A DNA stretch of 64,000 nucleotides from Escherichia coli (GTDB lineage Bacteria > Pseudomonadota > Gammaproteobacteria > Enterobacterales > Enterobacteriaceae). Positions within the stretch are counted from its first letter, which is position 1; every line of letters begins with the position of its first letter. Under the pieces are notes generated by a model, which was not told the origin of the DNA, searched no databases, and saw nothing but the letters and a program-made list of their open reading frames with translations. The stretch lies in NCBI RefSeq assembly GCF_003334315.1, contig NZ_QOWR01000003.1. The stretch is one strand, 5' to 3'. The position numbers and the translations under genes are program-made. Of this stretch, positions 15,822-52,800 are shown piece by piece.

Positions 15822-16892
15822 TTACTCCCCGACGCGCTCATTAATTGCCTGCGGATTGTACGTGATAAACATCGCATCACCGTAACTAAAAAAGCGATAT
15901 TTCTCTTCTACCGCTGCTTTATAGGCGTTCATGGTGTGTTGATAACCGGCAAAGGCCGAAACCAGCATAATCAGCGTCGACTCTGGCAAGTGGAAGTTCG
16001 TCACCAGCGCATCGACCACTTTGTACTGGAAGCCCGGATAGATAAAGATTTGGGTATCGTCGAAGAACGGTTCAATGAGATCGTTTTTCGCTGCCTGAGC
16101 CGCGCTTTCCAGCGAACGTACTGAAGTGGTGCCAACCGCAATCACCCGGTTACCGCGCGCTTTCGCCGCCAGTACCGCGTCTACCACATCCTGCGGTACT
16201 TCAGCGTATTCCGAGTGCATGATGTGATCTTCAATGGTGTCGACGCGCACCGGCTGGAAGGTGCCCGCACCAACGTGCAACGTCACAAACGCCATCTCCA
16301 CGCCTTTGGCGCGCAATTTTTCCAGCAAAGGCTCGTCAAAATGCAGACCTGCGGTCGGGGCTGCAACCGCGCCCGGTTTTTCGCTATAAACGGTTTGATA
16401 AAGTTCGCGGTCAGCGTCTTCGTCCGGACGGTCGATATACGGCGGCAGCGGCATATGGCCGATGCTGTTGAGAATATCCAGCACCGAGCGTTCATCATTA
16501 AATTCGACTTCAAACAGTGCGCCGTGGCGCGCGGTCATTGTTGCGTTAATACTTTCGTCATCGCCCAGCAGCAGTTCTGCGCCAGGTTTTGGCGCTTTCG
16601 AGGCGCGAATATGCGCAAGAATGCGTTTGTCGTCGAGCATCCGTTCAACCAGCACTTCAATCTTGCCGCCGCTGGCTTTACGCCCAAACAGGCGCGCCGG
16701 GATCACGCGGGTATTATTAAAAACCAGAAGATCGCCGGGGTTGAGCTTATCAAGTAAATCGGTGAAAGTACCGTGCGTCAGCGCGCCCGTCGGCCCGTCC
16801 AGCGACAGTAAACGACAGCTACTGCGTTCAGGCATGGGATAGTGGGCAATCAGGGATTCGGGCAATTCAAAGGAGAAATCGGTAACGCGCAT
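15822..16892 (-). CDS. queA: S-adenosylmethionine:tRNA ribosyltransferase-isomerase
   Basis: 356-aa [32 protein letters not shown]... Confidence 0.97.
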
Positions 16893-46671: not shown

Positions 46672-50346
<3,675 letters not shown>

Positions 50347-50868: not shown

Positions 50869-51843
50869 ATGACAGACTTAATCCAACGCCCTCGTCGCCT
50901 GCGCAAATCTCCTGCGCTGCGCGCTATGTTTGAAGAGACAACACTTAGCCTTAACGACCTGGTGTTGCCGATCTTTGTTGAAGAAGAAATTGACGACTAC
51001 AAAGCCGTTGAAGCCATGCCAGGCGTGATGCGCATTCCAGAGAAACATCTGGCACGCGAAATTGAACGCATCGCCAACGCCGGTATTCGTTCCGTGATGA
51101 CTTTCGGCATCTCTCACCATACCGATGAAACCGGCAGCGACGCCTGGCGGGAAGATGGACTGGTGGCGCGTATGTCGCGCATCTGCAAGCAGACTGTGCC
51201 AGAAATGATCGTCATGTCAGACACTTGTTTCTGTGAATACACTTCTCACGGTCACTGCGGTGTGCTGTGCGAGCATGGCGTCGACAACGACGCGACTCTG
51301 GAAAATTTAGGCAAGCAAGCCGTGGTTGCAGCTGCTGCAGGCGCAGACTTCATCGCCCCTTCCGCCGCGATGGACGGCCAGGTACAGGCGATTCGTCAGG
51401 CGCTGGACGCTGCAGGCTTTAAAGATACGGCGATTATGTCGTATTCGACCAAGTTCGCCTCTTCCTTTTATGGCCCGTTCCGTGAAGCTGCCGGAAGCGC
51501 ATTAAAAGGCGACCGCAAAAGCTATCAGATGAACCCAATGAACCGTCGCGAGGCGATTCGTGAATCACTGCTGGATGAAGCCCAGGGCGCAGACTGCCTG
51601 ATGGTTAAACCTGCTGGAGCGTACCTCGACATCGTGCGTGAGCTGCGTGAACGTACTGAATTGCCGATTGGCGCGTATCAGGTGAGCGGTGAGTACGCGA
51701 TGATTAAGTTCGCCGCGCTGGCGGGTGCTATAGATGAAGAGAAAGTCGTGCTCGAAAGCTTAGGTTCAATTAAGCGTGCGGGTGCGGATCTGATTTTCAG
51801 CTACTTTGCGCTGGATTTGGCTGAGAAGAAGATTCTGCGTTAA
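50869..51843 (+). CDS. hemB: Delta-aminolevulinic acid dehydratase (porphobilinogen synthase)
   Basis: ORF track 50836..51843 trimmed to ATG 50869 ([26 protein letters not shown]...), 324 aa. Confidence 0.95.
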
Positions 51844-51849
51844 TTTTTT

Positions 51850-51935
51850 TCCTCTCAGAAAGGGGGAGTTAACCTGTTGAAAGTACGGTGAACGCCCCCT
51901 CACCCTAACCCTCTCCCCAAGGGGGCGAGGGAACC
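51850..51935. repeat. GC-rich imperfect palindromic intergenic element (boxC-like)
   Basis: CCTCTCAGAAAGGGGGAG and GCCCCCTCACCCTAACCCTCTCCCCAAGGGGGCGAGGGAACC between convergent hemB and tauD. Confidence 0.35.
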
Positions 51936-51948
51936 GTCCGCACTCGTA

Positions 51949-52800
51949 TCACCCCGCCCGATAAAACGGTTTATCCCCAAGAATCGTCGCCCGATGCATA
52001 ATCCGCCGCTGTGGCAGGTAATCGGCATTGGCATAGTGCTGAGTCACGCGGTTATCCCAAATCGCAATATCATTCGGTTGCCAGCGCCAACGCACCTGAA
52101 ACTCCGGTTTAGTGATATGGGCGAATAAAAAGCCTAACAAGGCTTCGCTCTCTTTCTCGCTGACATCGACAATTCGCGTAGTAAAGCCTTCATTCACAAA
52201 CAGCGCCTGTTTACCGCTCACCGGATGCGTTCGCACCACCGGATGTAGCAACGGAGGATTTTTCGCGACCGCCTCGCGCCAGCGTTGATGTTCCTCCTCG
52301 GTTTTGCGGTATTTGTATTCCGGGAACGATTTACGGAAATCATGCTCCGCACGCAGCCCGCTCAGCAGCTGGCGGAAGGGAACAGAGAGCGCCTCATAGG
52401 CCGCAATACCGCTGGTCCAGAGCGTATCACCGCCGGTCGAAGGTAATTCTTTAGCTGCCAGAATCGCCCCTGCGGGTGGCGTTTCAATAAATGTCACATC
52501 GGTATGCCAGTTGTCGTTATCTGGCGGATTATCGTTATGGGTATCCAGCACGATGATCTCGTCAACCCCTTCGGCATGAGGGTAAACAGGGTGAATATGC
52601 AGTTCGCCAAAACGCTGGGCCAGCGCGCGTTGCTGCTGCGGCGTAATGGCTTGATCGCGCAGAAACACCACCTGATGGCGCAGCACCGCATGGTAAAGCT
52701 GTTCAAACTGATTATCGCTTAACGGGCGCGTCAGGTCGGCACCCGAAATTTGTGCGCCGATATACGGCCCCAGCGGGGTAATGCTCAGACGTTCACTCAT
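51949..52800 (-). CDS. tauD: Taurine dioxygenase
   Basis: 283-aa [43 protein letters not shown]... Confidence 0.97.

Follow-up and report, generated by a model that had tools for sequence, protein, structure and literature searches.

A BoxC repeat between the convergent hemB and tauD genes of Escherichia coli

What is the GC-rich palindrome that separates the convergent hemB and tauD genes of Escherichia coli, and does it end their transcripts? We addressed this question in a 64-kb window, by which we mean the whole stretch of DNA that was analysed. A hemB-like open reading frame (ORF) ends at 51843 (+) and a tauD-like ORF occupies 51949-52800 (-), leaving a spacer of 105 nt (51844-51948); based on the RefSeq annotation of identical E. 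coli records, the genes encode porphobilinogen synthase (hemB) and taurine dioxygenase (tauD). The original prediction placed an imperfect palindrome at 51850-51935 and suggested that it might be a boxC-type repeat and a bidirectional terminator. Both of the palindrome arms that it quoted are present on the plus strand, CCCTCACCCTAACCCTCTCCCC at 51897-51918 and GGGGGCGAGGG at 51921-51931. The BoxC element lies entirely inside the spacer, between the two stop codons listed below, and is thus intergenic. The hemB mRNA carries its C-rich strand and the tauD mRNA its G-rich (TMECO-sense) strand.

51841..51843 (+), hemB stop codon TAA, 53 nt before the BoxC core
51949..51951 (-), tauD stop codon TGA, 17 nt before the BoxC core

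The palindrome belongs to a repeat family that has been described under several names. BoxC is the name reportedly used in a survey by Bachellier and coworkers in 1999, and the PIT elements are said to go back to work by Hoyne and coworkers in 2000 and by Hoyne and Maher in 2002. The reverse complement of window positions 51896-51931, CCCTCGCCCCCTTGGGGAGAGGGTTAGGGTGAGGGG, matches as a regular expression the core consensus CCCTCNCCC-N3-6-GGGNGAGGG-N3-GGGNGAGGG[G/T/C/-]. This 36-nt core is identical at 36 of 36 positions to K-12 TMECO no. 5 (type A, one mismatch), located at MG1655 388664-388699 in the tauD-hemB spacer (Holder et al. 2015, Table 1, PMC4666352); the same authors equate the TMECO family with the BoxC repeat of the 1990s and with the PIT elements of Hoyne and Maher. 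A second catalogue lists the tauD-hemB locus as the G-quadruplex/hairpin motif HPG1 no. 13, 31 nt from tauD and 54 nt from hemB with a midpoint at 388688 (Kaplan et al. 2016, PMC5100583), and the sequence common to that motif and the window copy is GGGAGAGGGTTAGGGTGAGGG. The boxC-type assignment was therefore correct: the element is already known, at exactly the hemB-tauD locus and in two papers, and we are nearly certain of its identity as a BoxC copy. Annotating it as BoxC settles the finding, which has little importance for the window itself.

A BLAST search with the 48-nt core, which carried out the genome-wide copy search that had been proposed as a check, found copies in 5426 of 5426 complete E. 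coli genomes, with a median of 18 and a maximum of 32 places per genome, and the motif is multi-copy rather than unique. From K-12, 23 copies at 18 loci were re-extracted by pattern and aligned. Only one BoxC copy occurs within the 64-kb window, where the 22-mer arm and the double G-block pattern are each found once, compared with 0.00 and 0.03 occurrences expected from shuffled sequence; the palindrome is not a chance occurrence. An Rfam scan of 51700-52100 returned chance-level matches only (E ≥ 1.4, far below gathering scores). The REP consensus GCCKGATGNCGRCGY-N5-RCGYCTTATCMGGCCTAC was not matched in the window even when up to 3 mismatches were allowed, which rules out a REP identity for the element and bears out the view that the palindrome is unlike REP. 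By the same result, the REP units that had been described elsewhere in the window are not confirmed with this consensus pattern.

BoxC is a non-coding dispersed repeat, found mostly at gene 3' ends. It is a G/C-rich imperfect palindrome of 50-70 bp, in which a core of three 9-nt blocks sits inside a weaker outer palindrome. Read along the minus strand from 51931 to 51896, the window copy is CCCTCGCCC-CCTTG-GGGAGAGGG-TTA-GGGTGAGGG-G, and its parts and surroundings are as follows.

51923..51931 (-), block 1, CCCTCGCCC, forming the hairpin's pyrimidine arm (regular-expression match to the published consensus)
51918..51922 (-), loop 1, CCTTG (RNA fold)
51909..51917 (-), block 2, GGGAGAGGG (pair-by-pair check)
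51906..51908 (-), loop 2, TTA, which marks type A elements
51895..51905 (-), block 3, GGGTGAGGG, with two additional G
51932..51943 (-), 5' outer flank, GTGCGGACGGTT, conserved in type A BoxC (profile of 15 type A copies)
51882..51894 (-), 3' flank, GCGTTCACCGTAC, unlike the consensus of type A copies, GAACAGGCCGGCAC
51861..51900 (+), inverted repeat AGGGGGAGTTAACC / GGTGAACGCCCCCT, specific to this locus and outside the repeat family, with 12 nt in its loop

Blocks 1 and 2 form 8 Watson-Crick pairs and one G.A mismatch, which corresponds to type "A mm" as assigned from Table 1 of Holder 2015 (PMC4666352), and if the outer C and G of loop 1 also pair, the stem reaches 10 bp and the loop shrinks to CTT. 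Block 3 can bind block 2 under reverse-Hoogsteen rules (G.G, T.A, and A.A), with 9 of 9 triads allowed, or can alternatively pair with block 1 through one G.T wobble; on the minus strand, RNAfold prefers the block 1:block 3 pairing. Together, blocks 2 and 3 make up a canonical four-tract G-quadruplex motif, GGGGAGAGGGTTAGGGTGAGGGGG, at 51895-51918 (-), where canonical denotes four G-tracts of at least 3 with loops of 1-7. Only two such motifs occur in the 64-kb window, the other being GGGATAGTGGGCAATCAGGGATTCGGG at 16836-16862 (+).

The type A copies of K-12 share ∼20 nt on the 5' side (AAAAAcG.GC.CGGACGGTC) and ∼14 nt on the 3' side (GAACAGGCCGGCAC), indicating a full BoxC unit of ∼70 nt. The 5' flank of the window copy, separated from the tauD stop codon by 5 nt, agrees with the type A consensus in its proximal part and differs from the K-12 consensus G.GC.CGGACGGTC by a one-base deletion and a C-to-T change at the last base. 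The A-run of this flank is lost, with the end of tauD and its stop codon now in its place. The whole 3' flank is unlike the consensus, suggesting that the element is truncated or rearranged on that side. Apart from these flank differences, the window copy resembles BoxC/PIT/TMECO in its 36-nt core, three blocks, type A loop TTA, intergenic position, multi-copy nature, and 5' outer flank, and it departs from the family in nothing essential. Within the predicted interval of 51850-51935 the repeat is real, but its boundaries shift, with the core at 51896-51931 and the conserved outer flank reaching 51943, and the left part (51850-51895) is locus-specific sequence rather than repeat. The inverted repeat listed above has 14-nt arms at 51861-51874 and 51887-51900, the right one overlapping the BoxC C-run; it folds at -17.6 kcal/mol (z, -1.5) and is absent from all other K-12 copies.

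The RNA of a 38-nt core folds at -16.7 kcal/mol on the plus strand and -22.3 kcal/mol on the minus strand, and a GC-rich stem-loop of the kind found in intrinsic terminators is thus present in both strands. Folding had been proposed earlier as a check. The hairpin is stable in both strands, but RNA and DNA folds of several sub-regions reached z-scores of only -1.0 to -1.8 relative to dinucleotide shuffles, which is not significant. The folds are not significantly better than those of shuffles because any sequence with such G/C blocks folds well, and the reality of the element therefore rests on family membership and not on thermodynamics.

Could the hairpin itself release RNA polymerase arriving from either side? 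A stable GC-rich stem in both transcripts and a position between convergent genes are what a bidirectional intrinsic terminator would have. An intrinsic terminator also requires that a U-tract follow the stem immediately, which neither strand of this copy provides. The hemB-sense RNA continues past the hairpin with AACCGUCCGCACUCG (also cited as AACCGUCC), whereas the tauD-sense RNA continues with UUAGGGUGAGG (also UUAGGGUG) after block 2 or, if block 3 pairs, with GGCGUUCACCG (also GGCGUUCA). The A-run in the 5' flank of type A elements does yield a T-run on the C-rich strand, ∼15 nt beyond the core, which would suit a terminator, but at hemB-tauD the tauD stop codon occupies the place of this T-run, accounting for the lack of a U-tract. 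A scan for promoter and terminator consensus sequences found nothing in the hemB-tauD spacer. The copy between adk and hemH is followed by a canonical terminator of its own (GGCCGGATATTCATTCGGCCTTTT), a point against BoxC as a terminator. Earlier reporter assays were likewise negative, with PIT elements described as devoid of promoter and terminator activity (Hoyne and Maher 2002, as cited in Holder 2015, PMC4666352).

Published K-12 transcript data allowed us to ask where transcription leaving hemB stops. The curated Term-seq set, which covers three growth conditions (Adams et al. 2021), has no 3' end in the spacer (3884xx to 3888xx), and the proposed 3'-end mapping thus has no entry for this copy; in those media hemB is weakly expressed and tauD is silent. 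The same study reports a bicyclomycin-sensitive, and hence Rho-dependent, termination region at K-12 388499 (-), antisense to tauD (Adams et al. 2021, Supplementary file 2). Upstream/downstream reads there were 86/33 untreated and 146/213 with bicyclomycin, corresponding to a Rho score of 3.8 (p, 2e-9) that is taken over 800-nt windows and locates the termination point imprecisely. We converted the position to the window via the tauD end positions, the K-12 core being identical, as follows.

52090..52100 (+), ∼52096, equivalent of the K-12 Rho region 388499 (-), ∼165 nt past the hairpin

The location of this region indicates that minus-strand transcription leaving hemB in K-12 passes through BoxC and is stopped further on by Rho. 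Minus-strand reads near 388499 could come partly from an antisense promoter instead of hemB. On the hemB-sense strand of the window, the C:G ratio exceeds 1.2 from 51884 to 52003, and this C-rich character fits Rho loading. Separately, we noted a small terminator-like hairpin with a T-rich tail (AAGCCTAACAAGGCTT CGCTCTCTTT) inside antisense tauD at window position 52130-52155 (+), ∼40 nt beyond the equivalent of the Rho termination region.

Sister copies of the repeat do appear in the Term-seq data. We searched for the BoxC sequence in the curated table (Adams et al. 2021, Supplementary file 1), and four K-12 sister copies, representing both orientations, have their dominant 3' ends exactly 4 nt beyond the hairpin formed by blocks 1 and 2.

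3781065 (+), primary end of lldD (copy 17), C-rich orientation
3959467 (-), end of the ppiC transcript (copy 20), G-rich orientation, block 3 being downstream of the mapped end
847200 (-), orphan end at a degenerate copy, G-rich orientation
4231270 (-), end antisense to rluF at a degenerate copy, C-rich orientation

A U-tract is missing after the hairpin at all four. Some 150 nt further on at lldD-trmL lies another 3' end, flagged as Rho-dependent (Rho score, 3.68), and the layout of a hairpin followed by a Rho-dependent end is the same as at hemB. REP elements, and Rho-dependent transcripts generally, are known to undergo exonuclease trimming back to a stable stem. In the simplest reading of the sister ends, Rho terminates the transcripts downstream and exonucleases then degrade them as far as the BoxC stem. 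The BoxC family does define RNA 3' ends in vivo, and the most likely mechanism is a block to exonucleases, not termination of RNA polymerase. The ends at +4 nt could instead reflect non-canonical termination.

Taken with these sister ends, the proposal of a bidirectional terminator keeps one element of truth, in that BoxC copies do mark RNA 3' ends, and in both orientations, as an intrinsic terminator would. The rest of the proposal is not supported, given the lack of a U-tract, the negative terminator scan, the negative reporter tests as cited, and the bicyclomycin sensitivity of downstream transcription. BoxC and intrinsic terminators are alike in placing a GC-rich stem-loop downstream of a stop codon; BoxC differs in having no U-tract and in the Rho sensitivity of transcription beyond it. 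We regard release of polymerase by the hairpin itself as highly improbable and conclude that the hemB-tauD element is not a factor-independent terminator.

The Rho data raise a second possibility, namely, that the C-rich hemB mRNA strand is part of a rut site and promotes Rho-dependent termination of hemB in a strand-specific manner. The C:G ratio reaches 2.7 in the 40-nt window 51884-51923, the C-rich stretch continues for ∼120 nt, the Rho termination region ∼165 nt downstream lies at a typical distance, and lldD-trmL is laid out equally. However, the C-rich blocks are predicted to be paired, the C-rich stretch is shorter than a full rut site, and alleles without BoxC exist. Among K-12 tandem solo copies, 3 are C-rich and 2 are G-rich, with no clear orientation bias, and we therefore rejected a rut site as a family-wide function. 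For the hemB-tauD copy, we consider a contribution to a rut site quite unlikely.

We instead favor, as a likely explanation that includes the BoxC identity, a stem-loop repeat in the transcribed 3' UTR, through which RNA polymerase reads and which probably acts as an exonuclease stop. The element occupies 3' untranslated space common to two convergent genes and is transcribed from both sides. RNA polymerase would read through it, Rho would end hemB transcription ∼150 to 250 nt further on, inside antisense tauD, and the block 1:block 2 stem-loop would then stop 3'-to-5' exonucleases. Stable mRNA ends would be expected ∼4 nt beyond the stem-loop, at about 51935 in hemB mRNA and about 51905 in tauD mRNA. 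By analogy with the sister copies, we infer that the hemB-tauD copy defines mature 3' ends and that these ends are probably made by exonuclease trimming and not by termination. Triplex and G-quadruplex forms are not needed for this RNA-level behaviour and may explain the instability of the locus.

The genomic distribution of the family agrees with a function at transcript ends, and other observations weigh on the opposite side. The 18 K-12 BoxC loci comprise 7 convergent, 9 tandem, and 2 divergent gene pairs, indicating a preference for 3' ends. Against the stem-loop explanation, this copy has no entry among the curated Term-seq 3' ends, although at such low expression this amounts to absence of evidence. 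The stem of the window copy also contains the G.A mismatch, and its z-scores are unremarkable. Substitutions in block 1 of O157 and RM10466 are uncompensated, which suggests that selection on the stem is weak. Any function must also be dispensable or replaceable, given that a third of E. coli genomes have no element at hemB-tauD.

The closest functional likeness is to REP/BIME elements, which were reportedly described by Stern and coworkers in 1984 and which protect mRNA 3' ends as stabilisers. Both REP/BIME and BoxC are dispersed, transcribed GC-rich palindromes at gene 3' ends; neither has a U-tract, and in both, RNA 3' ends map to the base of the stem. They differ in that their sequences are unrelated, that REP occurs in hundreds of copies per genome and BoxC in ∼20, and that BoxC has three blocks with triplex/G-quadruplex potential. 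We know of no RAYT-type transposase for BoxC.

Previous work on the family has concentrated on DNA structure, from which a third explanation follows. The single-stranded G-rich strand would form a triplex or G-quadruplex that stalls polymerases and lets the locus rearrange, any effect at the RNA level being incidental. Every triad of the window copy obeys the triplex pairing rules, a canonical G-quadruplex motif is present, and others have described such forms of single-stranded DNA in vitro, including a stable triplex proven biophysically with a type A mm oligonucleotide, along with higher variability around TMECO loci (Holder 2015, PMC4666352). The HPG1 "G-quadruplex-hairpin-duplex switch," which has the same locus and the same sequence, was read as a regulatory G-quadruplex switch (Kaplan et al. 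2016, PMC5100583), whereas the 3'-end data point to a simple RNA block 1:block 2 hairpin with block 3 trimmed. On the other hand, neither duplex DNA nor DMS footprinting in vivo gave a triplex signature (Holder 2015, PMC4666352), and Hoyne and Maher, as cited there, describe no in vivo effect.

The variability that such structures might cause is evident in the alleles of the locus. The hemB-tauD locus was present in 5424 of 5426 complete genomes, and 3564 of 5426 carry the BoxC spacer (105/106 nt). About one-third of E. coli genomes, for example, Nissle 1917, have instead an unrelated 39-nt spacer with a 10-bp hairpin, ATGCCGGGTT-ATCC-AACCCGGCAT, whose fold is much more stable than that of shuffled sequence (z, -5.0 and -2.8). 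A third, RM10466-type allele, found in 229 genomes, consists of the BoxC spacer plus a 51-52-nt segment that adjoins the element and has GGAC[GA]GTC repeats at its flanks. We considered whether this segment is another repeat and rejected the idea, as it is single-copy and confined to this locus in the 229 genomes. At adk-hemH (K-12 497550-498180), a 158-nt BoxC allele that includes the separate canonical terminator contrasts with a 54-nt allele containing a different hairpin, and the BoxC form is missing from ∼2500 of 5426 genomes, or nearly half. Almost all genomes retain BoxC at zntA-tusA.

We sought a clean empty site at hemB-tauD, adk-hemH, and zntA-tusA and found none. At hemB-tauD and adk-hemH, the BoxC-free alleles replace the whole spacer, so that insertion boundaries are not readable. 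Whole-spacer replacement agrees with the raised variability that Holder and coworkers described around TMECO elements (PMC4666352), and the three very different spacer alleles at hemB-tauD, with similar replacement at adk-hemH, favor an effect of DNA structure. However, recombination between lineages also yields variable intergenic alleles without any structural cause, and a primarily DNA-level action appears unlikely to us.

The dispersal of the family suggests a fourth explanation, in which the hemB-tauD copy is the relic of a small, non-autonomous mobile element (MITE- or REPIN-like) that was moved by a transposase in trans and has no present function here. The copies are dispersed and near-identical, inverted doublets of type A plus type B occur at 5 K-12 loci, and the core is found in Mitsuaria, Contendobacter, and an unclassified metagenome-assembled genome (MAG) with lineage-specific flanks. 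For this comparison, species-representative genomes were scanned with the TMECO pattern, and the matches listed represent three organisms rather than a taxonomic survey. In the MAG "bacterium GL140_5_metabat_74_sub," the core is part of a ∼115-nt repeat with two flank subfamilies, a subterminal hairpin (GCGGGCTCCGCCCGC), and TTAG (sometimes TTGG) on both sides, a unit that looks like a MITE or an IS200/IS605-type miniature element. The presence of the core in a 115-nt unit bordered by TTAG is in keeping with past mobility of the family.

The TMECO pattern also occurred in at least 120 stretches of viral or proviral IMG/VR contigs, which also speaks for a mobile element; in E. coli itself, no association of TMECO with phages or plasmids was reported (Holder et al., PMC4666352). 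The 48-nt core BLAST (E-value limit, 10) gave 368 matches on plasmids, and those listed are weak, at 81-89% identity, with two inside arcC. Several observations argue against the relic. No clean filled-versus-empty site was seen at the two loci examined, where whole spacers are replaced, a target-site duplication was not seen in E. coli, and no transposase was linked to BoxC.

An organism that bears on the choice between a relic and a role in transcripts is Mitsuaria chitosanitabida NBRC 102408 (Burkholderiales), whose genome contains at least 145 copies of the three-block core. These have the loop GCTTGC, and a conserved flank, TCTTCGGGCTC, that differs from that of E. coli, and no U-tract follows the copies. 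Among the copies listed, 41 are in convergent, 44 in tandem, and 5 in divergent contexts, and 29 of 38 close pairs share one inverted configuration, mostly between convergent genes. Also among the copies listed, those within 30 nt of a stop codon place the C-rich strand in the mRNA in 56 cases versus 7 (binomial p = 1.4e-10), and several stop codons overlap the edge of the element. The Mitsuaria genes were called with our own GC3-based ORF filter, not a gene finder, and the tight distribution of distances to stop codons would not arise from random calls. This strong bias in position and orientation points to selection at the transcript level, and we consider the functionless mobile relic rather doubtful as an account of the hemB-tauD copy. 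In at least this one genome, the placement of the copies suggests a role, or selection, acting at the 3' ends of transcripts. The core is thus a module common to distant bacteria, with flanks that are lineage-specific.

A wider claim may be drawn from these comparisons and is offered as tentative, namely, that BoxC/TMECO is primarily an RNA 3'-end module and not a DNA triplex/G-quadruplex element. Its block 1:block 2 hairpin would set the mature ends of transcripts, mostly Rho-terminated ones, in either orientation, and its 33- to 36-nt core would have spread across beta- and gammaproteobacteria as a stop-codon-proximal 3'-UTR cassette. If true, this would overturn the published view of the family as having no terminator activity and an unknown function and being a source of instability. 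BoxC has been without an accepted function for ∼30 years, during which the literature has centred on DNA triplex and quadruplex structures. The 3' ends 4 nt past the hairpin and the placement of the Mitsuaria copies at stop codons in a fixed orientation suggest that it may serve as a 3'-UTR stem-loop, a role that is simpler and can be tested. Natural E. coli strains with and without the element at hemB-tauD supply a ready-made comparison for this role.

The surroundings of the locus may include one further difference from K-12. Just upstream of hemB, the window contains an uninterrupted 987-aa ORF at 47383-50346 (-) in what we take to be the place of yaiT, presumably a pseudogene split by an IS in K-12. 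If K-12 yaiT is IS-split, the window strain would carry the intact form.
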